A DNA stretch of 64,000 bases from Methanomassiliicoccaceae archaeon. GTDB lineage: Archaea > Thermoplasmatota > Thermoplasmata > Methanomassiliicoccales > Methanomassiliicoccaceae. This document shows positions 49,547-64,000 of this stretch, piece after piece (position 1 is the first letter of the stretch; each line of letters starts with the position of its first letter). The stretch is from NCBI GenBank assembly GCA_040776945.1, contig JAXGZN010000002.1, positions 256,001 through 320,000 of the forward strand, read 5' to 3'. The translations under genes and the position numbers were made by a program. The notes beneath the pieces are model-generated. The model worked only from the letters and a program-made list of their open reading frames with translations. It was not told the origin of the DNA and did not search any database.

Positions 49547-51043
49547 ATGACGGGGAAGCGAAGCATACCGCTGGCCAAGTACGAGCAGATCGTGGAAATG
49601 GCCAATGAGGGCATCTGGACGGTGGACGCCCGGAACCTCACTGACTTCATCAACGAGCGGGGGGCGGCCATCCTCGGCTACCGCCCGGAGGAGATGCTCG
49701 GCCGGCCGCCGGCCGATTTCTTCCTTCCAGATTCACTGGATGGTGCACAGGAGTGGCTGGGGGCGCTCATGGGCGGCGAGGCCGCCAACTATGAGCTGCA
49801 CTTGCGGCGGAAGGACGGCTCCGGCGCATGGGTCCTCGCGTCCACCCGGCCGCTCTTCGCCAAGGACGGCAGCTACGAGGGGGCGCTGAACGTCTTCTCG
49901 GACATCACCGAGCGGAAGCGGACCGAGGAGGCGCTGCACCGCTCGCAGCAGATGCTGTCCCTGGTGCTCGACAGCGTGCCGGGCCGCGTGTTCTGGAAGG
50001 ACCTCGAGCTGAACTACCTGGGATGCAATCGCAGCGCGGCCAGGGACGCCGGGTTGGAGGGTCCGGAGGACATCGTCGGCAGGAGCGACCATGACCTGGC
50101 GTGGAAGAGCACGGCGAACGATCACCGGGCCGACGATCTCGAGGTCATCAGGACCGGCGTTCCGAAGCTGGGCTACGAGGAGGTCCAGTTCCGCGAGGAC
50201 GGTCCGCGGTGGCTGCGCACGAGCAAGGTGCCCCTGCGCGATCCGAACGGCAGGATCATCGGGGTGCTCGGCACCTCCGAGGACATCACCGACCGCAAGG
50301 CCGCGGAGAAGCGGCTGGAGGAGTACGCCAGGCAGCTGGAGCGGTCGAACGAGGAGCTGCAGGAGCTCGCCTACGTGGCCTCGCACGACCTCAAGGAGCC
50401 GCTGCGCATGGTCACGCTGTCGCTGGACATCCTGCGGCGGAAGCACGGCGCGGAGATCGGCCCGAACGTCGACCAATATTTGAGCACGGCGATCGAGGGC
50501 GCCGAGAGAATGCGCCGGCTGATCAACGACCTGCTCACGTACTCGAGGGTGGAGGCGCAGGCCCGGGAGTTCGGCGCGGTGGACATGCGCGCGGCATTGG
50601 AGGCCGCGCTGGAGTACCTGAGAGCGTCGATCGAGGAGTCGCAGGCGGAGGTGTACGTCGGCGAGCTGCCGACGGTGCTGGCCGACGAGGTGCAGATGAA
50701 GCAGCTGTGGACGAACCTCATATCCAACGCCGTTAAATATCGAAGCGAGGCGAGGCCGGTTGTCAGCATAACATGCTCCGCCCAGGGCGACATGGTCGTG
50801 TTCTCGGTGCGCGACAACGGCATAGGCATCGAGCCGAGGCACCTCCCCTCGCTGTTCCGCATGTTTCACCGGCTGCATTCGAGGCACGAGTACTCCGGCA
50901 CCGGCATCGGCCTGGCGGTGTGCAAGAAGATCGTGGAGCGGCACGGCGGCAAGATATGGGCGGAATCGGACGGCGTGAGCGGGTCGAACTTCCTGTTCAC
51001 GCTGCCTAGCTTGAGCGCTCCGGCGGCAAGGCTGAGGAAGTAG
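49547..51043 (+). CDS. PAS-PAS sensor histidine kinase
   Basis: AYVASHDLKEPLR, NLISNAVKY, DNGIGI, GTGIGL motifs. Confidence 0.92.
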   Translation: MTGKRSIPLAKYEQIVEMANEGIWTVDARNLTDFINERGAAILGYRPEEMLGRPPADFFLPDSLDGAQEWLGALMGGEAANYELHLRRKDGSGAWVLASTRPLFAKDGSYEGALNVFSDITERKRTEEALHRSQQMLSLVLDSVPGRVFWKDLELNYLGCNRSAARDAGLEGPEDIVGRSDHDLAWKSTANDHRADDLEVIRTGVPKLGYEEVQFREDGPRWLRTSKVPLRDPNGRIIGVLGTSEDITDRKAAEKRLEEYARQLERSNEELQELAYVASHDLKEPLRMVTLSLDILRRKHGAEIGPNVDQYLSTAIEGAERMRRLINDLLTYSRVEAQAREFGAVDMRAALEAALEYLRASIEESQAEVYVGELPTVLADEVQMKQLWTNLISNAVKYRSEARPVVSITCSAQGDMVVFSVRDNGIGIEPRHLPSLFRMFHRLHSRHEYSGTGIGLAVCKKIVERHGGKIWAESDGVSGSNFLFTLPSLSAPAARLRK

Positions 51044-51214: not shown

Positions 51215-52033
51215 GTGAGAGACATGACCATCGAAGTGCTTCCCGGAATGGAGATGTCCGCCCTGGACTGGTGGGACGATATAGCGGAGAGGCTGAGGGA
51301 GACCTCGCCGGTGATATTCCTTGATTACGACGGCACCTTGACGCCGATCTCCAACGTGCCGTCGCAACCGGTGCTGACGGACAGCATGCGCGGCACGCTG
51401 CGCCGCCTGGCGAAGAAGTGCCCGGTCGTCCTGGTCAGCGGACGCGAGATCGAGGACATCAAGCGGCGCGTGGGTCTCGACGAGCTTGTGTACATGGCCA
51501 GCGGGGGCTTCGAGGTCATAGGGCCGTACGGCCACTACGTGGAGAGGAGCGCCGAGGAGTTCGTCCCGTCGCTCGACCGGGCGGAGAAGGAGCTGCGGTA
51601 CTCCATCGGTGAGATCAGGGGAGCGCTCGTGGAGCGCAGGCGCTTCGCGGTGGCCGTGCATCACCGCCTCGTGGACGAGAGGACCATGCCCTGGCTGGAG
51701 GAGATCTTCGACCGCGTGGCCAGGAAGAACCCCCGGCTCCGGGCGGTCAAGAGCAAGCGGGCCTTCGAGCTGAAGCCGAACGCCGACTGGGACCGCGGCC
51801 GTGCCGTGGGTCTCGTGATAAGCACGCTCCGGCTGAGGAACGCGATGCCGGTGTACATAGGCGACGACAACGCGGACGAGGAGGCGTTCAAGGCCATCGG
51901 AGAGCACGGCGTGACCATCATGGTCACCGAGGACGCGCGGGAGACGGCGGCGCAGTACGTCCTGGCGGACGAGCTGGAGGTGCAGCAGTTCCTGGAGCAG
52001 GTGATCGAGACGCTGGAGGAGCGGGCTCCCTGA
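51215..52033 (+). CDS. otsB: Trehalose-6-phosphate phosphatase (HAD IIB)
   Basis: FLDYDGTL.PI, VSGR, AVHHR, ELKP...WD.G.A, IGDD..DE.AF motifs. Confidence 0.85.
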   Translation: MRDMTIEVLPGMEMSALDWWDDIAERLRETSPVIFLDYDGTLTPISNVPSQPVLTDSMRGTLRRLAKKCPVVLVSGREIEDIKRRVGLDELVYMASGGFEVIGPYGHYVERSAEEFVPSLDRAEKELRYSIGEIRGALVERRRFAVAVHHRLVDERTMPWLEEIFDRVARKNPRLRAVKSKRAFELKPNADWDRGRAVGLVISTLRLRNAMPVYIGDDNADEEAFKAIGEHGVTIMVTEDARETAAQYVLADELEVQQFLEQVIETLEERAP

Positions 52034-52530: not shown

Positions 52531-53586
52531 TCAATCGTTCCTCACCACTGGGAAATCATCCAGCATCATCTGCCCGCTCTTTTTGATCGGGGTCACCACC
52601 TTCTGAAGGTTCTCAATTAAAATGTCCATCCTCTGATTCATGATCAGGTCATAGAACAGGTGGATCATTTCCTCGAACTTGTCCTCGTTGCCCAATCTCA
52701 AGGCGTTGATGTATCTATCTCTGTCCCTGCCAAGGAACAGCAACTTCGGGAACTTCTCACGCAACAGCAGGTAGTTGAACACCTCCCTGCCGACGCGTCC
52801 GTTCCCATCTGTGAACGGATGTATCATCTCGAACTTATAATGAAAGATGACGGCAGCCTCGAACGGATGCTTTGAATCCATCACTGAACCATAGTACTCG
52901 TCGATCAACTCCTTCAGCTCCATCTCGATCATGTCCGCGGGGGTCACTGAAAGGTCGCATCCGCCTATCCCAATGCCATCTATCCTCCGGAAGGTCCCTG
53001 CAGATTCGGTATCGATGTTGTTCATGATCATCGAATGCATGGTCTTGATGAAATCCAAGGTTACCTTGCCCTTGTATCTGTTCCGGTAGAGTAGCACATT
53101 CTTGAAGTTCTGGACCTCGTTGATCTCCCTCAGGGTCTTGGCATTTGGAGCTACTCCTTGCTCCAGGAGGCTGTGGGTCTCCGCCAGGGAGAGGGTGTTC
53201 CCCTCGATGGAAGTGGTTCCGTGCACATAACTGACCTCGAAGTTCTTCTCGTAGCTTTCGGCCTCGTTGACGGTCAGGAGGTCGGTGAACGAGCGATAGA
53301 TGAACCTCAGTTCCTCCAGGTTGATCACCTCCTCATTGGACAGATATGAGGAGCGAAAGCAATCTGCATTAAGCTGAGCTTTCTTCTTCGCCGCCTTCAT
53401 CTCCAGATCGAATGCGTAATCCCGGCGGAATGCGGCGAGCTCACGGGAGGTCGGAGGAGAACCGCTCCCTAGGTACTTCTTCACCTTGCTCTTCTTCTGG
53501 CCTACCTTCACGTCCTTGACCAGATAGAACTGGGGCTGGCCTCCTTGTGGATAGTTCACCTCGACCCTATAGGGCTTCCTTGCCAT
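52531..53586 (-). CDS. Fic-domain protein (AMPylase-like)
   Basis: HPFTDGNGRVGR catalytic motif; TTSIEGN inhibitory motif. Confidence 0.92.
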   Translation of the reverse strand: MARKPYRVEVNYPQGGQPQFYLVKDVKVGQKKSKVKKYLGSGSPPTSRELAAFRRDYAFDLEMKAAKKKAQLNADCFRSSYLSNEEVINLEELRFIYRSFTDLLTVNEAESYEKNFEVSYVHGTTSIEGNTLSLAETHSLLEQGVAPNAKTLREINEVQNFKNVLLYRNRYKGKVTLDFIKTMHSMIMNNIDTESAGTFRRIDGIGIGGCDLSVTPADMIEMELKELIDEYYGSVMDSKHPFEAAVIFHYKFEMIHPFTDGNGRVGREVFNYLLLREKFPKLLFLGRDRDRYINALRLGNEDKFEEMIHLFYDLIMNQRMDILIENLQKVVTPIKKSGQMMLDDFPVVRND

Positions 53587-55710: not shown

Positions 55711-56649
55711 ATGGAACATTCTAAGATATTGGTGACCGGCGGGGCCGGCTTCATCGGCACGAATCTAGTAAAGGAGCTCTCGGGACGCGGGCACGAGGTG
55801 TTCGCCGTTGACCTGCTCAACAACGAGCGTAAAAACTACTGTCGCTGCGATATTAGGAGCATCCGCCAGATTGAAAGGTTATTTGATAAGAGGAAGTTCG
55901 ATTATGTTTATCATCTCGCCGCAGAATATGGACGCTGGAACGGCGAGGATTATTACGAGAATTTGTGGGAGACGAATGTTATTGGAACGAAGAACATGCT
56001 CCGTATGCAGGAGCGGTACAAGTTCCGCATGATCTTCTATTCGTCCGCCGAGGTCTACGGCGATTACCGCGGCGTGATGTCCGAGGACGTGATGGAAAAG
56101 AATCCCATCGCCGACACCTACCAGATGAACGACTATGCAATCACCAAGTGGGCAGGGGAGCTCATGTGCTTGAACTCGGCCAAGATGTTCGATACCGAGA
56201 CCGTCCGCGTGCGGCCAGTGAACTGCTACGGTCCCGGAGAACACTACACTCCTTATCGCGGATTCATTCCAAAGTTCATCTACAGTGCATTACATGGACT
56301 CCCATATACAGTGTATCGGGGCCATAAGCGCATCATCGACTTTGTCGAGGACTCCTGCCGTACCTGGGCCAACATCGTTGACAAGTTCATTCCGGGCGAG
56401 GTGTACAATGTCGCCGGCCGTCCATAGTGGGAACGCTCCATCGAGGAATATTCAGACCTGATCCTCAAGGCAGTCGGTCGGGACGATTCACTTGTCACTT
56501 ACAAAGAAGCGGAGCCGTTCACTACCGAGGTAAAGACTGTAGACTGCTCGAAGGCTGTTAAAAATCTGAAGCATGCTCCCCGCGTCACTCCTGAGGAAGG
56601 GATCAAGCGGACGGTGGAGTGGATGAAGTGGTTCTACCGGGTGGAGTGA
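55711..56649 (+). CDS. NAD-dependent sugar epimerase/dehydratase with in-frame TAG at 56425-56427
   Basis: GGAGFIG, HLAA, SSAEVYG, YAITK motifs; the frame continues for 73 codons after TAG to TGA 56647-56649 with a typical SDR C-terminus (PEEGIKRTVEW). Confidence 0.85.
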
Positions 56650-56654
56650 TCCAG

Positions 56655-57650
56655 ATGAACGACTTTTCCGACTTCAAGGGGAAGACCGTCCTTGTGACGG
56701 GCGGAGCGGGCTGCGTTGGCAGCAACCTCTGCAGGAGGCTCGCTGAGCTCGAAGCGAAGGAGGTCATAATCCTTGACGATCTCTCATCGGCGTACGAGTG
56801 GAATATCCCGAAAGCGAACAACATTTCCTTCGTTAAGGGCAGCATCCTGGACGAGGGAATGCTGAAGCGGGTTTTCAAAAAACGCCCTCAATATGTGTAC
56901 CATCTCGCAGCGCACTTCGCTAACCAGAATTCTGTAGATAATCCGGAGAAGGACCTGCTGGTCAACGGGCTAGGCATTCTTAAGGTGTTGGAGCACGCGC
57001 AACTCGTGGATGTCGACCGGTTCGTGTACTCCTCGTCCGGCTGCGGTGTCTATGGATTGGACTCGAAGATGCCGTTCGAGGAGCACGATATCTCGATCTC
57101 ACTGCACACCCCCTACCAGGTCACGAAGCTCCTCGGCGAGCTGTACACCAACTACTTCCACAACCTCTACGAGATGCCGGTGGTGAACGCCCGCTTCTTC
57201 AACGTGTTCGGGCCAGGAGAGGTTCCAGGATGGTACCGTAACGTCATCCCCAACTTCATATACTGGGCTATGAACGGGCAGCCTCTGCCGATTACCGGCG
57301 ACGGCTCGGAGACCCGGGACTGGACCTACGTGATGGATATCGTGAACGGCCTGCTGGCGATGGGCGTGAAGGACAAGGCCATCGGCCAAGCGATCAACCT
57401 GGGCTCGGGCAAGGAGCATAAAGTGGTCGATATGGCCCGCAAGGTCAACGAACTCGCCGGCAACAAGGCAGGGATCAAGTTCGTGGAGCGCCGGGACTGG
57501 GACGTCAAGAAGCGGCTGTGTAGCTCGATCGGCAGAGCTCAGGACGTGCTCGACTACCGGCCGGCCGTCTCCTTCGAGGACGGGTTGAAGAGCGTACACT
57601 CGTGGTTCAAGAGCAACTGGGTCGAGATCCAGCGCTCGGCGGAGTTCTGA
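56655..57650 (+). CDS. NAD-dependent epimerase/dehydratase
   Basis: GGAGCVG, DDLSS, HLAA, YQVTK, NVFGPG, GDGSETRDW motifs; GGAGTGA SD. Confidence 0.92.
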   Translation: MNDFSDFKGKTVLVTGGAGCVGSNLCRRLAELEAKEVIILDDLSSAYEWNIPKANNISFVKGSILDEGMLKRVFKKRPQYVYHLAAHFANQNSVDNPEKDLLVNGLGILKVLEHAQLVDVDRFVYSSSGCGVYGLDSKMPFEEHDISISLHTPYQVTKLLGELYTNYFHNLYEMPVVNARFFNVFGPGEVPGWYRNVIPNFIYWAMNGQPLPITGDGSETRDWTYVMDIVNGLLAMGVKDKAIGQAINLGSGKEHKVVDMARKVNELAGNKAGIKFVERRDWDVKKRLCSSIGRAQDVLDYRPAVSFEDGLKSVHSWFKSNWVEIQRSAEF

Positions 57651-57654
57651 ACGC

Positions 57655-58848
57655 ATGCGCATCCTGGTCGTTCAGGAGTCGGACTGGATCGCCAAGGGGC
57701 CGCACCAAAGTCACCACCTGTTCGAGCGGCTGGCCCAGAAAGGCCACGAAATCCACGTCATCGACTACCCAATAGACTGGAGGAAGGCGCCGATCAAGAA
57801 GCCCCTGGTCATGATCAAGCAGGTCTTCACCAGCGTGCACAAGGTCGTCGGCAACGGTGTGACAGTGATTAGGCCGGGGATTGTCCAACTTCCGTTCTTC
57901 AGCTACGCCTCGCTCATCGTCACACACAGGTTGGAAATCATTAGGCAGATTAATGAATTCAAGCCGGACGTTATCGTCGGCTTCGGCCTCCTCAATGCAC
58001 GATTGGCCGCGACCCAGGCCCGCCACCATAACATACCATTCGTGTACTACGTGATCGACGAGCTCCACCGGTTGGTGCCGGAGCAGATGTTCCAGACTTT
58101 TGCCAGAGCGGTGGAGATGGACAATAACAAGAACGCCAGCAAGGTTATCTCCATCAACGAGGGCCTGAAAGACTATACGGTGCAGATGGGCGCAGCGCCT
58201 GAGAAGACTGAGGTCATCCGGGCCGGTGTAGACTTTAACCGCTTCTCGAAGGCCGATGGCTCGGCTATCAGGAAACGCTACGGTTTCACCGACGAGGATA
58301 CGGTGATGTTCTTCATGGGCTGGCTATATGATTTTTCAGGCCTGGACGAGGTCGCTATACAGATGGCTCAGAGCGAGAACAAGAATCTGAAGATGCTGGT
58401 TTTAGGAAAAGGTGAGCTCTGGGACAGCCTGCAGGATATCAAGGAAAAGTACAATCTGGGCGACCGCCTCATCCTCGAGGGCTGGAAGCCGTACGAGGAG
58501 GTTCCGTCATACCTCGCCGCGGTAGACATCTGCCTGCTGCCAGCGCAGAAGAACGAGATTATGCAGAACATCGTGCCTATCAAGCTGTACGAGTACATGG
58601 CCGCCGGGAAGCCGGTGATCTGCACCTCGCTACACGGCGTGATCACGGAGTTCGGGTACGATAATGGAATTCACTACATCGATAGACCGGAAGAAGTTAT
58701 ACCCCTGGCCACTACGCTCATTGACGGCTCGTCGATCGAGAGTGAAGGCCAGCTGGCCCAGCAGTTCGTGGCGGAGAACGATTGGAGCGTCATCACCTCT
58801 AGCTTTGAACTTACTTTGAACGAGCTTGTGCATAGCAACGAGTCTTAG
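57655..58848 (+). CDS. GT4-family glycosyltransferase
   Basis: AGVD..RF, PIKLYEYMAAGKPVI motifs. Confidence 0.9.
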   Translation: MRILVVQESDWIAKGPHQSHHLFERLAQKGHEIHVIDYPIDWRKAPIKKPLVMIKQVFTSVHKVVGNGVTVIRPGIVQLPFFSYASLIVTHRLEIIRQINEFKPDVIVGFGLLNARLAATQARHHNIPFVYYVIDELHRLVPEQMFQTFARAVEMDNNKNASKVISINEGLKDYTVQMGAAPEKTEVIRAGVDFNRFSKADGSAIRKRYGFTDEDTVMFFMGWLYDFSGLDEVAIQMAQSENKNLKMLVLGKGELWDSLQDIKEKYNLGDRLILEGWKPYEEVPSYLAAVDICLLPAQKNEIMQNIVPIKLYEYMAAGKPVICTSLHGVITEFGYDNGIHYIDRPEEVIPLATTLIDGSSIESEGQLAQQFVAENDWSVITSSFELTLNELVHSNES

Positions 58849-58857
58849 GTGTAAATC

Positions 58858-59913
58858 ATGTCAGAAAAAATTAGAGTGGGAATAATTGGTTGTGGTTTAA
58901 TCTCAAGGTTGCGCCATGTGCCTACTTACAAGAAGCTTGCGGAAAAGGTTGAGATTGCCTCGGTCTGCGACCTCGATGAGAAGCTAGCGAGTAGCCTGGC
59001 GGAGGACTTCAGTATCCCGGCGTGGTACAAAGACGTCAACGAGATGCTGAGCAAGGAGAATCTCGATCTGGTCGACATCTGCGTGCCGCCGAAGGTTCAT
59101 TCGAGCGTGGCGCTGAGCGCGATCGAGAACGGTTGTCACACCTTCATCGAGAAGCCCATGGCCCTGACGACTGCTGAATGTCAGCAGATGGTCGACGCCG
59201 CCAAGCGTAAGAACGTGAAGATCGGCATCAACCACAACAACCTGTTCCACCCCGCGTTCATCAAGGCGAAGAAGGCGGTCGACGAGGGAAAGATCGGGGA
59301 CATCGCGGGCATGCGCATCTATCTGTCCACGCCACGCCACGACATGCTCGACCTTAAGGATCACTGGTACCACCGCCTGCCGGGCGGGATGATCGGGGAG
59401 ACCGGCCCGCACATCGTATACATGACCCAGGCCTTCATCCGCGACATAACCAACGTCGATATCATGGCTAAGAACCTCACGAACAAGCCGTGGGCACCCC
59501 ACGATGAGTTCCGCATCGAGATGGAGGGCTCCAACGGCCTGAGCTCCGTCGCGTTGTCGTACACCCGGGACGCCTGGGCGGCGACCATGGACCTGTTCGG
59601 CACCAAGGGTAGCCTCAACGTCGACCTCAACACCATGCTGGTCACCAACCACAGCCTGCGGGACATGAAGTACACCAGCATCGCCAAGACCTCGCTGGGG
59701 ACGATTCCTCAGATTCTCGGCGGTTTCACTGGCAATGTCATGGGGGTGGCGATGAAGAAGAACATGGTGGGGACCCAGGTCCACATCGAGTCGTTCATCC
59801 AGTCGATCAACAACGGCAGTGTACCGCCTATAACTGGCGAGATGGGCCTGGAGACGGTCCGGGTGATGGAGTCGATAGTAAACAAATATAGAAATAAATA
59901 CTCGAGTGGCTAG
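58858..59913 (+). CDS. Gfo/Idh/MocA oxidoreductase
   Basis: IIGCG, EKPMA, E.GPH motifs. Confidence 0.9.
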   Translation: MSEKIRVGIIGCGLISRLRHVPTYKKLAEKVEIASVCDLDEKLASSLAEDFSIPAWYKDVNEMLSKENLDLVDICVPPKVHSSVALSAIENGCHTFIEKPMALTTAECQQMVDAAKRKNVKIGINHNNLFHPAFIKAKKAVDEGKIGDIAGMRIYLSTPRHDMLDLKDHWYHRLPGGMIGETGPHIVYMTQAFIRDITNVDIMAKNLTNKPWAPHDEFRIEMEGSNGLSSVALSYTRDAWAATMDLFGTKGSLNVDLNTMLVTNHSLRDMKYTSIAKTSLGTIPQILGGFTGNVMGVAMKKNMVGTQVHIESFIQSINNGSVPPITGEMGLETVRVMESIVNKYRNKYSSG

Positions 59914-59926
59914 GCGGGATTAGTTC

Positions 59927-61117
59927 TTGAACGTCTTGGCAATAGCGACAAACTTTCCGGATCCAATACATCGTACATGGGCACCTTGGAACAAGTCATC
60001 GATTGATGCTATCGCCTCCCAGGACAATGTTACAACAATCGTGCCAAGACCAATAGCCCCTCCAATGACAACATATTACACGATTCCGAGAGTAGAGATT
60101 ACTCAATTATATACTATACATTATATGAGATTCCCATATCTATTGCCAAAGAAATTATTTTATGGTTTGACAGGAGACTTATTCAAGTATTCAGTATCCA
60201 AATACATAGCAAAATCACTTACTGATAAAACAATAGAAAGGCCTGAGGTCATTCATTCGTTTCATCCATATCCAGATGGATATGGAATGACGGATATTTC
60301 CAAAGCCCTAAATGTACCCCATGTGATTACAGTGCATAGCCGCCGCAATGTTGAATATTGCACGGCAAAAGTAGTAAGGGCTCTTATAAGAGCATCCAAA
60401 ATTATTACAGTTTCGGAGTCTCTCGTACCTTTGATAAACTCCCTAGGGATACCCTTGGAAAATATCGCTCACGTGTCTCTTGGTGTAAACCCTAATGAAT
60501 TCAAGCCCATTGAACGGACGAAATCTAAGGTAGTAGTGCCAAAATATGGCATTGGCGATGAGCGTATAGTATTATTTGTCGGACAGCTCTTGCCAATAAA
60601 GAATATTAAGGCAATAATAGAATCCATCCCGTATGTGACGAATAGATTGAAAGGCAATAAAAGCAAGGTACGATTCATAATTGTTGGTGATGGTCCTGAA
60701 AGAATGAAAATGGAAGGTCTAGCGAGTAATCTTAAAGTAACGGAATATATAACCTTTACCGGTAGGATTCCGTTTGGGGATCTTGAGCTAAAGGAATGGT
60801 ATGGCATTTCCGATATCTTTGTATTGCCAAGCTTTTCGGAAGGCAAACCTGTAGCCATATTCGAGGCCATGAGTGGTGGTTGTGCAATCATATCTTCAAA
60901 TGTCGATGGGATACCAGAGCAAGTGAAAAACGGCGTGAACGGTTATCTCATTGATCCAACTACTCCAGGAGACTTTGCTAAGAAACTGCTTCTACTACTA
61001 TCAAAAGACGACGTATTAGAAAATATGAAGAAAGAAAGCCGTAGAATCTTGTTTGATTTAGGATACACATGGGATCACTATCAAAAGAGGGTAAGGTCTG
61101 TTTACGAACAATTCTAG
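59927..61117 (+). CDS. GT4-family glycosyltransferase (AT-rich)
   Basis: FVGQL..K, VGDG, LPSFSEG.P..EAM, GIPE motifs. Confidence 0.9.
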   Translation: MNVLAIATNFPDPIHRTWAPWNKSSIDAIASQDNVTTIVPRPIAPPMTTYYTIPRVEITQLYTIHYMRFPYLLPKKLFYGLTGDLFKYSVSKYIAKSLTDKTIERPEVIHSFHPYPDGYGMTDISKALNVPHVITVHSRRNVEYCTAKVVRALIRASKIITVSESLVPLINSLGIPLENIAHVSLGVNPNEFKPIERTKSKVVVPKYGIGDERIVLFVGQLLPIKNIKAIIESIPYVTNRLKGNKSKVRFIIVGDGPERMKMEGLASNLKVTEYITFTGRIPFGDLELKEWYGISDIFVLPSFSEGKPVAIFEAMSGGCAIISSNVDGIPEQVKNGVNGYLIDPTTPGDFAKKLLLLLSKDDVLENMKKESRRILFDLGYTWDHYQKRVRSVYEQF

Positions 61118-61139
61118 CAAACTTGGATGGTATTGATAG

Positions 61140-62261
61140 ATGGATAGACCACTGAAACTAGTAATCGTGACGACACCATTAACCGAAATATCTGAAGGGT
61201 TTGCTAAAAACTTTATCAAAATTATTGCTCAAACAGGTTCTTCGATACGATTAATTAGTGGGATTAGGGATAAGAAATATTTTTGTAAATATGTAGAGAA
61301 ATATACTGATATTTCGTACTACGCTAGATCAAAATGGCAACGCCTTTCAGGATATATTGCTTCCCAACTAATTACATCAAAGAAGTGCTTGAGCGAGGAT
61401 GCCTCATTATACATCTTTTTTCTTTCACAGACACAGTTAATTCCTATCTTCTTGATTAAAATATTTAAAAGAAAAACTCCTACCGTTTTGTTCCCTGGAG
61501 GTTCAGTCCATCTATCCTACAAACAAAGGAACGTTGGACTTTCAATCTTTTTTAATATTATGGAGAGAATTGGGTATTGTATATCGGATAATATAATCTT
61601 GTATTCCAAAAGCCAGATGTGCAATTGGCGTTTGGATAGGTATAGCAAGAAAATAGCATTTGCTCGAGAACATTTTATAGACGCAAACGAGTTTAAGATT
61701 ATTAATAGTCTGTCAGAACGTGGAAATACAATAGGTTTCGTAGGTCGCCTTAGTTCTGAAAAGGGAATACTCTCGTTTGTTGAAGCAGCCAAAGCTTTGG
61801 TATCGGAGAGAAATGATATTCACATCATTATTGCAGGATCAGGAGAGATCGAGTCGCAAATTAGAAATCAAATTAAACCAGAATACTTGGGAAAATTTGA
61901 GTTCTGTGGGTGGGTACCTCGTTCTGAGATTCCCAAATTATTGAACAGAATAAGAATTCTAGTTATACCCTCATACACAGAAGGGCTTCCTAATGTTATG
62001 CTTGAGGCTATGGCGTGCGGAACATTAGTGATAGCTACCTCAGTGGGCACGATTCCGGATATTATCAAGGATGGGGAAACAGGGTTCATATTGAAAGACA
62101 ACTCGCCAAAAACGATTAAGGAAGGCATAAGTCGGGCTATTGAACACAAGAACCAATGCGCGATTGTAGAAAAATCTCTTAGCATAATTAACAACAATTT
62201 TTCATTCGATGAGTCGGTCCGCCTCTGGGTTGAAACGCTCGCATTGTTAAAGAGAGGGTGA
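61140..62261 (+). CDS. GT4-family glycosyltransferase (AT-rich)
   Basis: FVGRLSSEKG, PSYTEGLPNVMLEAMACG motifs. Confidence 0.9.
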   Translation: MDRPLKLVIVTTPLTEISEGFAKNFIKIIAQTGSSIRLISGIRDKKYFCKYVEKYTDISYYARSKWQRLSGYIASQLITSKKCLSEDASLYIFFLSQTQLIPIFLIKIFKRKTPTVLFPGGSVHLSYKQRNVGLSIFFNIMERIGYCISDNIILYSKSQMCNWRLDRYSKKIAFAREHFIDANEFKIINSLSERGNTIGFVGRLSSEKGILSFVEAAKALVSERNDIHIIIAGSGEIESQIRNQIKPEYLGKFEFCGWVPRSEIPKLLNRIRILVIPSYTEGLPNVMLEAMACGTLVIATSVGTIPDIIKDGETGFILKDNSPKTIKEGISRAIEHKNQCAIVEKSLSIINNNFSFDESVRLWVETLALLKRG

Positions 62262-62265
62262 TTTC

Positions 62266-64000
62266 TTGACTGTAACTCAATCACGCCAGCATAAAATATT
62301 TTTAATGATATCATTCATCTTGGCTATAATTTCACTGATGGTCGAATCACTAAGTCTTCCAGTAACCCACTATGAAATTTCTATTTATTCTGGTATGAGC
62401 TGGACTTTTTGGTTTCTTATTTTCGCCTCAATGGCAATTGGTTTGATTGTGTTGTTTGACACTTATTTGAAAGGTAGCTCTTTGTGGTTGATTTCATTTA
62501 TTTTAATATTATTTAATATCTTCATATTGGTCATACTTCCTTATCTACGAGGCTACTATTATTTTGGTGGGGAGGATTCCTTGGTTCATATGGGGACAAT
62601 TCGCCTCATTGTAGAGGAAGGACATATGCCTATTGACTCTATCGCTGCTTTCTACCCATTAATGCATTACCAAGGATCGTTTCTTCAGATAATCTTAAAT
62701 TTACCATTAAACACAATTCCATATCTCGGCATATTCTTATATATCCTAATTTATTCATTATCATACATTATCTTATCAAGATTATTAACGCCTTCAAATG
62801 CTGGAAGGGGTCTTATCATAGTTCTTGGGTTGTTACCCATATTTGGCCTAGATACTATGAATTATTCCCCATTCGTACGGGCAATACTACTCATTCCCAT
62901 TATTATGTATCTATTCTTAAAGACGAGAAGTAATATCCACAGGTTAGAGTTCTCGTTAATCTTGCTTATCGTATTGTTATCTCTTCCTCTATTGCATCCC
63001 CTGGTAAGCATATTTTTATTCATATTGATTCTTGGATTGATTATCTCTGAACAAATCAATATTCACTTAGGTCTATTACCTCGATTGAGCATAGATCAAA
63101 AAAGTTCCAACTGGACCATTTTGATGATAGTAATCATCTCTACATTTGCATGGATTTCTCAATTCCTGTACTTTAGATATGTCGCGAATAAAATTATCGA
63201 CAACATCTTCTATGCAAATGGCCAATCTTTAGCAAAAACATACACATCAATTACTACTATTGTCCAGCCACTAGATTTACTATATTATATTCTAATAAAC
63301 TATGGTTCGTATATAATTTTATCAGTTATATCCATACACATATTCCTTTATCACATTTTTCCACTAGCGTCTAGAAGGAAATCATGGAATCCCATTCTAC
63401 TTTCCCTCTTTATCATAGCAACCATTTTTTTCTTACTGTCTAGTGTTCTCTTTATCCTGGACTTTTTGGTCGGACCTAGAACATTGAGCATCCTAGGAAT
63501 TATCCTCATATCTATCTGTGGTTTGGGCTTTTATTATTCCAGACGTAGGCAGCGGACATTAATTGTAGCCTTATTGATCATTTTAATGTTAATTCCTTCG
63601 ATATCCACTTTTTATTCATCGCCCGTATCGAAGGGAGTTGGGTGGCATTATACTGAGATGGACTTAGTTGGTGATCAGTGGGCAATTTCATCCTCAGAAT
63701 CCAACTATTTCTTATGCAATTATCGGATATGGGCTTCTTCGCAATATCTTGGCCTCAATGCGTCAATTGCGTCGACAGATATTCAGCCTCATTTTAATTT
63801 TGATGAATTATTTGAAAATCAAGATATCTCTCATGATTTGATAATTATTGACGAAAAAATGAAGGAGTCCTACCCGACACTGTTTCCAAATTATGAGAGC
63901 TATTGGAAATATTCAAAGAATGATTTTGATAATTTAATAAGAAGAGGGGACCTATCACGCGCCTATATCAATGGAGATAAACAAATATATCTAATCAACA
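62266..64000 (+). CDS. Multi-TM membrane protein (DUF2206-like / possible glycan polymerase or GT-C); runs off the window
   Basis: Not in the ORF track. TTG start after GAGGGTG; YEISIY, LPYLRGY..GGEDS..H.G, FYP..H, HPL motifs; very hydrophobic. Confidence 0.7.
   Translation, partial: MTVTQSRQHKIFLMISFILAIISLMVESLSLPVTHYEISIYSGMSWTFWFLIFASMAIGLIVLFDTYLKGSSLWLISFILILFNIFILVILPYLRGYYYFGGEDSLVHMGTIRLIVEEGHMPIDSIAAFYPLMHYQGSFLQIILNLPLNTIPYLGIFLYILIYSLSYIILSRLLTPSNAGRGLIIVLGLLPIFGLDTMNYSPFVRAILLIPIIMYLFLKTRSNIHRLEFSLILLIVLLSLPLLHPLVSIFLFILILGLIISEQINIHLGLLPRLSIDQKSSNWTILMIVIISTFAWISQFLYFRYVANKIIDNIFYANGQSLAKTYTSITTIVQPLDLLYYILINYGSYIILSVISIHIFLYHIFPLASRRKSWNPILLSLFIIATIFFLLSSVLFILDFLVGPRTLSILGIILISICGLGFYYSRRRQRTLIVALLIILMLIPSISTFYSSPVSKGVGWHYTEMDLVGDQWAISSSESNYFLCNYRIWASSQYLGLNASIASTDIQPHFNFDELFENQDISHDLIIIDEKMKESYPTLFPNYESYWKYSKNDFDNLIRRGDLSRAYINGDKQIYLIN

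Follow-up and report, generated by a model that had tools for sequence, protein, structure and literature searches.

An in-frame amber codon of apparently recent, strain-level origin in a putative UDP-xylose synthase gene of a pyrrolysine-encoding methanogenic archaeon

The window analyzed here is a stretch of 64,000 nucleotides from a Methanomassiliicoccaceae archaeon (contig JAXGZN010000002.1, assembly GCA_040776945.1), and it contains a tight row of genes headed by an extended-SDR gene that is interrupted by an in-frame TAG codon. The features of the locus and its surroundings, with positions counted from the first letter of the window, are as follows.

49547-51043, plus strand: PAS/HisKA/HATPase sensor kinase gene, upstream, with a TAG stop
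51215-52033, plus strand: trehalose-phosphatase gene, upstream
52531-53586, minus strand: gene of a Fic-domain protein, upstream
55711-56424, plus strand: first part of the extended-SDR gene (codons 1-238, with the Rossmann domain), which encodes a putative UDP-xylose synthase of the Mth373 type
56425-56427, plus strand: in-frame TAG, codon 239, derived from GAG (Glu) by G-to-T at 56425
56428-56646, plus strand: codons 240-312, reached by read-through alone, with the predicted Glu268, TTEVK 271-275 and Lys275
56647-56649, plus strand: TGA, the ancestral stop of the extended-SDR gene (orthologs have 311-316 aa and the same end point)
56655-57650, plus strand: second extended-SDR gene, 331 aa, intact (PF01370, 180 bits; GDP_Man_Dehyd profile positions 1-331 of 332)
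57655-58848, plus strand: GT4/GT1 glycosyltransferase gene, intact, with a TAG stop
58858-59913, plus strand: Gfo/Idh/MocA oxidoreductase gene, intact, with a TAG stop
59927-61117, plus strand: GT1 glycosyltransferase gene, intact
61140-62261, plus strand: GT1 glycosyltransferase gene, intact

The extended-SDR gene comprises 312 codons (55711-56649, plus strand) beginning with the ATG at 55711, and its single lesion is the TAG at codon 239 (...YNVAGRP*), after which the same frame remains open for 73 further codons (WERSIEEY...WFYRVE) up to the TGA at 56647-56649, five bases ahead of the ATG of the second gene (56655-56657). The original prediction had described just such an arrangement, with an in-frame TAG, a frame open to a TGA ending at 56649, 312 codons in all, no other lesion and a next ATG 5 nt on, and every part of this description was confirmed. 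By our own estimate the chance of an open run of 73 codons is ∼0.09 at 60% GC, which is weak evidence by itself; it is the homology that is decisive in marking the downstream stretch as predicted genuine coding sequence rather than a frame open by chance, as the Pfam GDP_Man_Dehyd alignment crosses the TAG (residues 7-301 on profile positions 1-332) and the 114 residues spanning it match PDB 8w3u with an E-value of 6.5e-57. After the TAG the first in-frame ATG, GTG or TTG is codon 303 (GTG, 56617-56619), so that codons 240-312 have no independent start, and on these grounds a split gene whose C-terminal part is translated separately was ruled out. A PYLIS-like structure 3′ of the UAG was also sought and none stood out, the RNA fold in the 110 nt after the TAG having a z-score of −0.93 (34 of 200 shuffles fold equally well or better), with a value of −1.54 in the same shuffle comparison for the fold downstream of the TAG in this genome's own mtmB. 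According to the literature, such a structure is not essential for pyrrolysine (Pyl) insertion.

The five genes downstream of the extended-SDR gene are without lesion, and the GT1 genes are followed by an open-ended ORF of 578+ aa, without a match in Pfam, that extends past the end of the window, while the region at 53.6-55.7 kb contains only small, weakly scoring ORFs. Directly upstream of the ATG of the second gene lies GGTGGAGTGATCC, which, in view of the archaeal 16S 3′ end, we take to be a Shine-Dalgarno-like ribosome-binding site. With an ATG and a putative ribosome-binding site of its own, the second gene and those following it need not be silenced by termination at the TAG 230 nt upstream. 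It had been suggested that codon 239 gates the glycan operon, which this arrangement does not support; only one enzyme would be affected and not the operon. The G+C content is 48-54% over the extended-SDR gene and 34-40% from 60000 onwards, in a genome of 59.6% G+C, and on this measure the cluster is a mosaic, apparently in part a foreign island, in which positions 60000-64000 of the window have the look of DNA that was acquired horizontally and became joined to the SDR genes. The extended-SDR gene itself is accessory, as it was found in seven of 40 relatives and in 0 of 10 same-genus genomes (E ≤ 1e-60); the named matches to it include Methanomassiliicoccus and Methanomassiliicoccales. There is no close paralog within the genome, where the next best match is 30-35% identical.

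The read-through protein resembles a structurally characterized type. It aligns with PDB 8w3u over residues 1-312 with identical numbering (E 5.4e-171) and is about 80% identical to Mth373 (PDB 8W3U/9AR1), and PF01370 is matched over residues 6-235 (154 bits) with the NAD-binding GxxGxxG motif of the N-terminal Rossmann fold present as GGAGFIG at residues 10-16. Mth373 of Methanothermobacter thermautotrophicus was crystallized with NAD and UDP or UDP-xylose (PDB 8W3U, 9AR1; PMC12820599), and from the structure with bound UDP-xylose together with sequence analysis it was assigned as a UDP-xylose synthase/UDP-glucuronate decarboxylase, EC 4.1.1.35 (FEBS J 2025, PMC12820599). The motif list and residue roles used here are those given for Mth373 in that report (PMC12820599), and all of the motifs are present, namely EYGRW 72-76, SAE 112-114, YAITK 142-146, PVNC 169-172, HKRII 205-209 and TTEVK 271-275. 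The catalytic Ser112, Tyr142 and Lys146 are matched at the same numbering, as are Glu114 and Tyr73 (SSAEVYG, YAITK, EYGRW). No NCBIfam equivalog cut-off was reached, the best being that of a dTDP-glucose 4,6-dehydratase model (141 bits against a cut-off of 365), and the specificity therefore rests on the likeness to Mth373, on which basis we regard the gene as encoding a Mth373-type putative UDP-glucuronate decarboxylase/UDP-xylose synthase. Two genes of the UDP-glucose/GDP-mannose dehydrogenase family elsewhere in the genome could supply its substrate. The family is strongly conserved, the best 120 matches being 77-95% identical and nearly all 310-320 residues in length. The C-terminal substrate elements (E268, TTEVK 271-275 and Lys275) are present, but all of them lie beyond the TAG; in Mth373, Glu268 forms a salt bridge to Arg75 and shapes the active site while Lys275 contacts the diphosphate (PMC12820599). 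Because Glu268, the 271-275 motif and Lys275 fall after codon 239, the 238-residue fragment should be inactive. The two genes differ at codon 239, which is Glu in Mth373 and TAG in the gene of the window, the function of which is predicted from likeness.

Is the TAG a property of the organism or of the assembly? Among 24 listed public runs, 20 (from 17 studies) contain the stretch, and the contigs of four of them were compared with the window. Contigs drop rare variants, and hence the comparison shows the alleles of the assembled contigs and not within-sample frequencies. T at 56425, with no other letter, was found in the contigs of three DNA runs, each belonging to a separate study, namely those from bioreactor sludge (X1; 2023, depth 9.8), which is possibly the source of the window, from a soil metagenome (X5; 2019, depth 5.2) and from activated sludge (X7; 2016, depth 4.0), and these TAG-bearing contigs are identical to the window. 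The fourth, an RNA run from activated sludge (X13; 2017), yielded a 760-nt contig at depth 5.8 with G at 56425, giving GAG, and over its 760 nt this contig has five differences from the window, at 56425 itself and at 56004, 56005, 56021 and 56501. The four further differing sites place the GAG allele in another strain, less than 1% diverged. The substitution at 56501 (A>G) changes Tyr264, which is invariant in a 16-sequence alignment, to Cys, and as it occurs in one contig at depth 5.8 it may be an error. In the soil and 2016 sludge runs the contig sets both break and overlap at 56377-56400, some 25-50 nt upstream of the TAG, for which either shallow coverage (3.5-5x) or a strain bubble caused by the T/G difference could be responsible. 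A sequencing or assembly error had been named as one alternative, but with T as the sole letter in DNA runs of three separate studies, hardly any room is left for sequencing error as the source of the TAG.

The orthologs show which of the two alleles is the older. An alignment at this codon, one of the checks originally called for, has Glu at position 239 in 15 of 15 ortholog proteins, one of them 95% identical, and TAG in none. Among the loci of relatives, GAA or GAG occurs in all six that were matched by motif search (a seventh, L012, was not matched by the expression), and none of eight match rows from seven genomes contains an internal stop. At 80 metagenome loci residue 239 is Glu in 76, Asp in three, Gln in one and TAG in none. 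Hence TAG conservation of the kind seen in mtmB is absent at codon 239, in 15 proteins, eight match rows and 80 metagenome loci alike. The exact 26-base pattern around codon 239, with either allele, had no match in metagenome contigs, and a protein-seeded metagenome scan returned orthologs of 74-85% identity only and no further DNA of the TAG lineage. With GAG in a strain less than 1% diverged and Glu in the orthologs, the TAG is the derived state, and judged from these sequences it is a recent, strain-level G-to-T transversion from GAG. A GAG-to-TAG nonsense mutation, raised earlier as an alternative to a Pyl codon, is therefore the reading that the data bear out, given the GAG in a near-identical strain and the Glu in the orthologs. 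By the same evidence the proposed coupling of surface glycan to methylamine metabolism is not supported, as TAG was found in no relative examined, the near-identical strain has GAG, and it is a near-invariant Glu that is replaced.

The host is equipped to read UAG as Pyl. The genome (2.17 Mb, two contigs, 59.6% G+C, 99.8% complete) contains mcrA, marking the organism as a methanogen, and a complete pylT-pylSBCD cassette is located on the same contig as the extended-SDR gene, about 50 kb away. The presence of pylTSBCD was a further check that had been proposed, and it is answered by this cassette, with a tRNA-Pyl of anticodon CUA and matches to NCBIfam models that are each above the curated cut-off (PylB, 432 bits; PylC, 338; PylD, 201; PylS C-terminal domain, 280). 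A PylS N-terminal domain was not found in the genome. The cassette is flanked by two mtmB genes with one in-frame TAG in each, while mttB (PF06253) and mtbB (PF09505) were not found in this 99.8% complete genome, and Pyl thus seems to be needed only for the use of monomethylamine in an organism in which TAG ends about one-fifth of the ORFs. PylS is present in eight of 10 same-genus and 18 of 23 same-family genomes, a distribution which indicates that the Pyl system is old in the lineage. The extended-SDR gene is a legitimate candidate for Pyl read-through, as originally proposed, in that the TAG is real in DNA, the host has the Pyl system and TAG-containing mtmB genes, and the gene is otherwise intact.

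UAG also serves as an ordinary stop codon in this genome. With ORFs called by a crude caller of our own and scored by codon usage only, TAG ends 449 of 1919 called ORFs (23.4%; 20.7-21.7% in stricter subsets). Coding-like extensions of at least 40 codons are not commoner after TAG (38 of 449 ORFs) than after TGA (85 of 1250) or TAA (18 of 220), and the read-through extension would overlap a different called gene, out of frame and over at least 60 nt, in 102 of the 365 ORFs ending in TAG, in 279 of the 1135 ending in TGA and in 39 of the 184 ending in TAA. Nor is there any excess of back-up stops after TAG, as a second stop within five codons or fewer follows 13% of the ORFs ending in TAG, 18% of those ending in TGA and 28% of those ending in TAA. 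TAG thus shares the stop behavior of TGA and TAA, which points to UAG as a stop that can be suppressed by Pyl-tRNA and not to a Code 34 genome, and Code 34, in which all TAG would be Pyl, was rejected in view of how often TAG serves as a stop and of the collision of 102 of 365 extensions with other genes. The caution that UAG would be ambiguous here because other genes end in TAG is well founded, both for three genes of the window (49547-51043, 57655-58848 and 58858-59913) and for 21-23% of the called ORFs genome-wide. The pylS gene (L022:7990-8901, minus strand) has a TAG stop at the final position of the PylS profile and one of the two mtmB copies is also terminated by TAG (L022:844-2562, minus strand), the L022 genes being those around 360.8-369 kb of G000:C2, so that read-through would extend genes of the Pyl machinery itself. 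A gene resembling that of aIF2-gamma, named by eye, also has a TAG stop. Among Pyl archaea a range of 1-27% is given for TAG stop usage (PMC12626013), with 11% in M. luminyensis (Borrel 2014), and Pyl-archaeal genomes with more than 15% TAG have been termed 'Group A' (Kivenson et al., bioRxiv 10.1101/2024.09.30.615893). At more than 15%, the TAG share found here fits the high-TAG 'Group A' and is within the published range.

Other stop-interrupted genes were looked for among 141 candidates with a coding-like extension (56 TAG/TAA and 85 TGA), the translations of which were triaged by eye with eight sent to Pfam; for the 85 TGA candidates the junctions were inspected visually, and Pfam was used in addition for one of them. 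In addition to the extended-SDR gene, four were recognized.

L030:860-2023 = G000:C1:268783-269946, minus strand: transglutaminase-like gene, Transglut_core at residues 190-286 with TAG at 204
L046:1-897 = C1:712094-712990, plus strand: TnpB/OrfB_IS605 transposase gene, alignment over 174-282 with TAG at 222
L068:1-588 = C2:334039-334626, plus strand: gene of an ECF-type S component, alignment over 14-178 with TAG at 149
L067:10886-12316 = G000:C2:322587-324017, plus strand: DDE transposase gene, with DDE_Tnp_1 spanning a single in-frame TAA

The last of these lies just past the end of the window and, as an ordinary nonsense pseudogene, served as a control. No TGA-interrupted gene was seen among the 85 TGA candidates, and the interrupted genes therefore divide into four with TAG, one with TAA and none with TGA. 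The one-step nonsense opportunity calculated from the codon usage of the genome is 62% for TAG and 19% each for TAA and TGA, and the chance of at least four TAG among five from these shares is ∼0.37 by our own arithmetic. An enrichment of TAG among interrupted genes as a sign of tolerance was accordingly rejected, as mutation alone predicts it (P ∼0.37).

We propose that the extended-SDR gene is probably a recent, strain-level leaky amber allele of an accessory sugar-nucleotide enzyme, in which any dependence on Pyl is a side effect. In this proposal, GAG would have changed to TAG at codon 239 of an accessory Mth373-type extended SDR, in a host with a PylS that lacks the N-terminal domain. As TAG is a common genuine stop, release factor would terminate at this UAG, and Pyl-tRNA(CUA) would presumably compete with it whenever the pyl genes are expressed. 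Termination, expected mostly or in part, would give the 238-residue, presumably inactive fragment devoid of Glu268, the 271-275 motif and Lys275, and suppression by Pyl would be the sole route to the full-length enzyme, in which Pyl would substitute for Glu at the near-invariant position 239. The output of full-length enzyme would then follow the supply of Pyl-tRNA as a side effect and not as a selected switch. By analogy with rdmS of M. acetivorans the gene should yield both a short and a long product, although the read-through fraction could be anything from near zero, equivalent to a plain pseudogene, to enough for normal function. What speaks against a leaky allele is that the TAG is found in runs of 2016, 2019 and 2023 with no second lesion, when a dead gene might show more damage; the identity of the TAG contigs to the window may mean that there has been too little time for further damage to accumulate.

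The main alternative is a plain pseudogene, for which the pyl genes would be off, or Pyl-tRNA too scarce, in most conditions, essentially only the inactive fragment would be made, and the TAG would mark early decay in a dispensable, horizontally acquired island. This is possible, if on balance unlikely, and it is consistent with several of the observations, as TAG ends 21-23% of ORFs without an excess of back-up stops (which suggests a read-through that is usually low or under tight control), the gene was not found in any of the 10 same-genus genomes, the G+C content of the cluster (34-54%) departs from that of the genome (59.6%), the near-invariance of Glu239 means that the read-through product may also be impaired, and the TAG bias of the interrupted genes (four TAG, one TAA, no TGA) is about that of mutation alone. 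Set against these are the lack of a second lesion in the extended-SDR gene or in the five genes downstream, the occurrence of the allele in runs from three studies between 2016 and 2023, and the documented suppression of any UAG by Pyl-tRNA in Methanosarcina with no special signal (PMC12626013). A rather more speculative idea, to which we give slightly less weight, is that a Pyl codon has been caught at birth, the TAG allele persisting because suppression provides enough working E239-to-Pyl enzyme while the GAG allele circulates in the strain less than 1% diverged; if true, the two alleles would be a natural polymorphic pair for UAG read-through and for the fitness cost of Pyl drift.

An established functional or regulatory Pyl codon, with the TAG kept to tie UDP-xylose supply and glycan to Pyl and methylamines, or with a Pyl form that is fully functional and neutral, appears improbable. 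The complete Pyl system, located some 50 kb from the gene on the contig they share, the otherwise intact state of the gene at the head of a tight row, the persistence of the TAG allele across samples, the tolerance of Asp or Gln at position 239 in four of 80 loci and the proteomic confirmation of Pyl in non-methyltransferase proteins of other archaea (bioRxiv 10.1101/2024.09.30.615893) would all agree with it, but codon 239 is TAG in none of the other lineages examined and GAG in the near-identical strain, no notable RNA structure follows the TAG (z = −0.93), the second gene starts at an ATG of its own, and the effect would fall on one enzyme and not on an operon. Moreover, the published supply-and-demand model predicts lower, and not higher, read-through on methylamine (PMC12626013). 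In that model for M. acetivorans the methyltransferase transcripts soak up Pyl and read-through is higher on methanol than on trimethylamine (PMC12626013), which is at odds with a simple coupling to methylamines and makes the direction of coupling that was originally proposed an unsafe expectation. Nothing in our analysis supports the view that the operon is adaptively gated. Least probable by far is a sequencing or assembly error in place of a genuine G at 56425. Consensus errors may occur in metagenome-assembled genomes, and the one RNA contig shows G, but T, with zero other letters, is present in independent Logan assemblies of the three DNA runs, each from a different study, and the four further differences of the G-bearing contig assign it to another strain. 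A leaky amber allele is therefore the interpretation that we carry forward. For annotation, this means that a label of amber-interrupted (possible Pyl) suits the gene better than an entry as a 238-residue protein.

The extended-SDR gene can be placed among several known or proposed cases of Pyl outside the methyltransferases. Thg1, the tRNA-His guanylyltransferase of M. acetivorans, reportedly carries an inserted Pyl as a product of neutral drift and is reported to be active. Like the extended SDR, it is an enzyme of the housekeeping type with a TAG that is sporadic, is not conserved and is tolerated through the Pyl-tRNA of the host; the two differ in that the residue replaced in the extended SDR is near-invariant and Pyl insertion there is predicted only. 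A tRNA guanylyltransferase is among the confirmed Pyl proteins (bioRxiv 10.1101/2024.09.30.615893), and native proteins with Pyl that arose through neutral drift are mentioned by Shalvarjian et al. (2025; PMC12626013). The sensor kinase RdmS of M. acetivorans is a non-essential Pyl-containing protein with long and short forms in western blots, both of which come from one transcript with an internal UAG, and only the short form is made when pylBCD is deleted (PMC12626013). As in the extended SDR, a non-methyltransferase gene has an internal UAG in a host that uses UAG both as a stop and for Pyl, whereas organism, enzyme class and TAG usage differ and the two forms are predicted ones here. According to the same study suppression of UAG by Pyl-tRNA requires no sequence signal (PMC12626013), and ribosome profiling has linked the demand for Pyl to tRNA-Pyl charging and to pausing at UAG (PMC13663744).

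More generally, non-methyltransferase genes with internal TAG codons have been predicted in their thousands in Pyl archaea, with confirmation by proteomics in some species (Kivenson, bioRxiv 10.1101/2024.09.30.615893). The 'Category 1' genes of Kivenson and the putative Pyl proteins of Shalvarjian et al. 2025 (PMC12626013) resemble the extended SDR in that homology is present on either side of the TAG, the extension exceeds 15 residues and the host has the Pyl machinery. With sporadic internal TAGs already catalogued and dual decoding of UAG shown in Methanosarcina, the extended-SDR TAG adds an example and not a principle. What is distinctive is that the TAG and GAG alleles are both present in public data, in strains less than 1% apart, and this pair offers a natural test, in a high-TAG Pyl archaeon, of the extent of read-through and of whether a conserved Glu can be replaced by Pyl. 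Hence, in comparison with the 'Category 1' genes, the TAG of the extended SDR can be dated to the strain level through its near-identical GAG allele.
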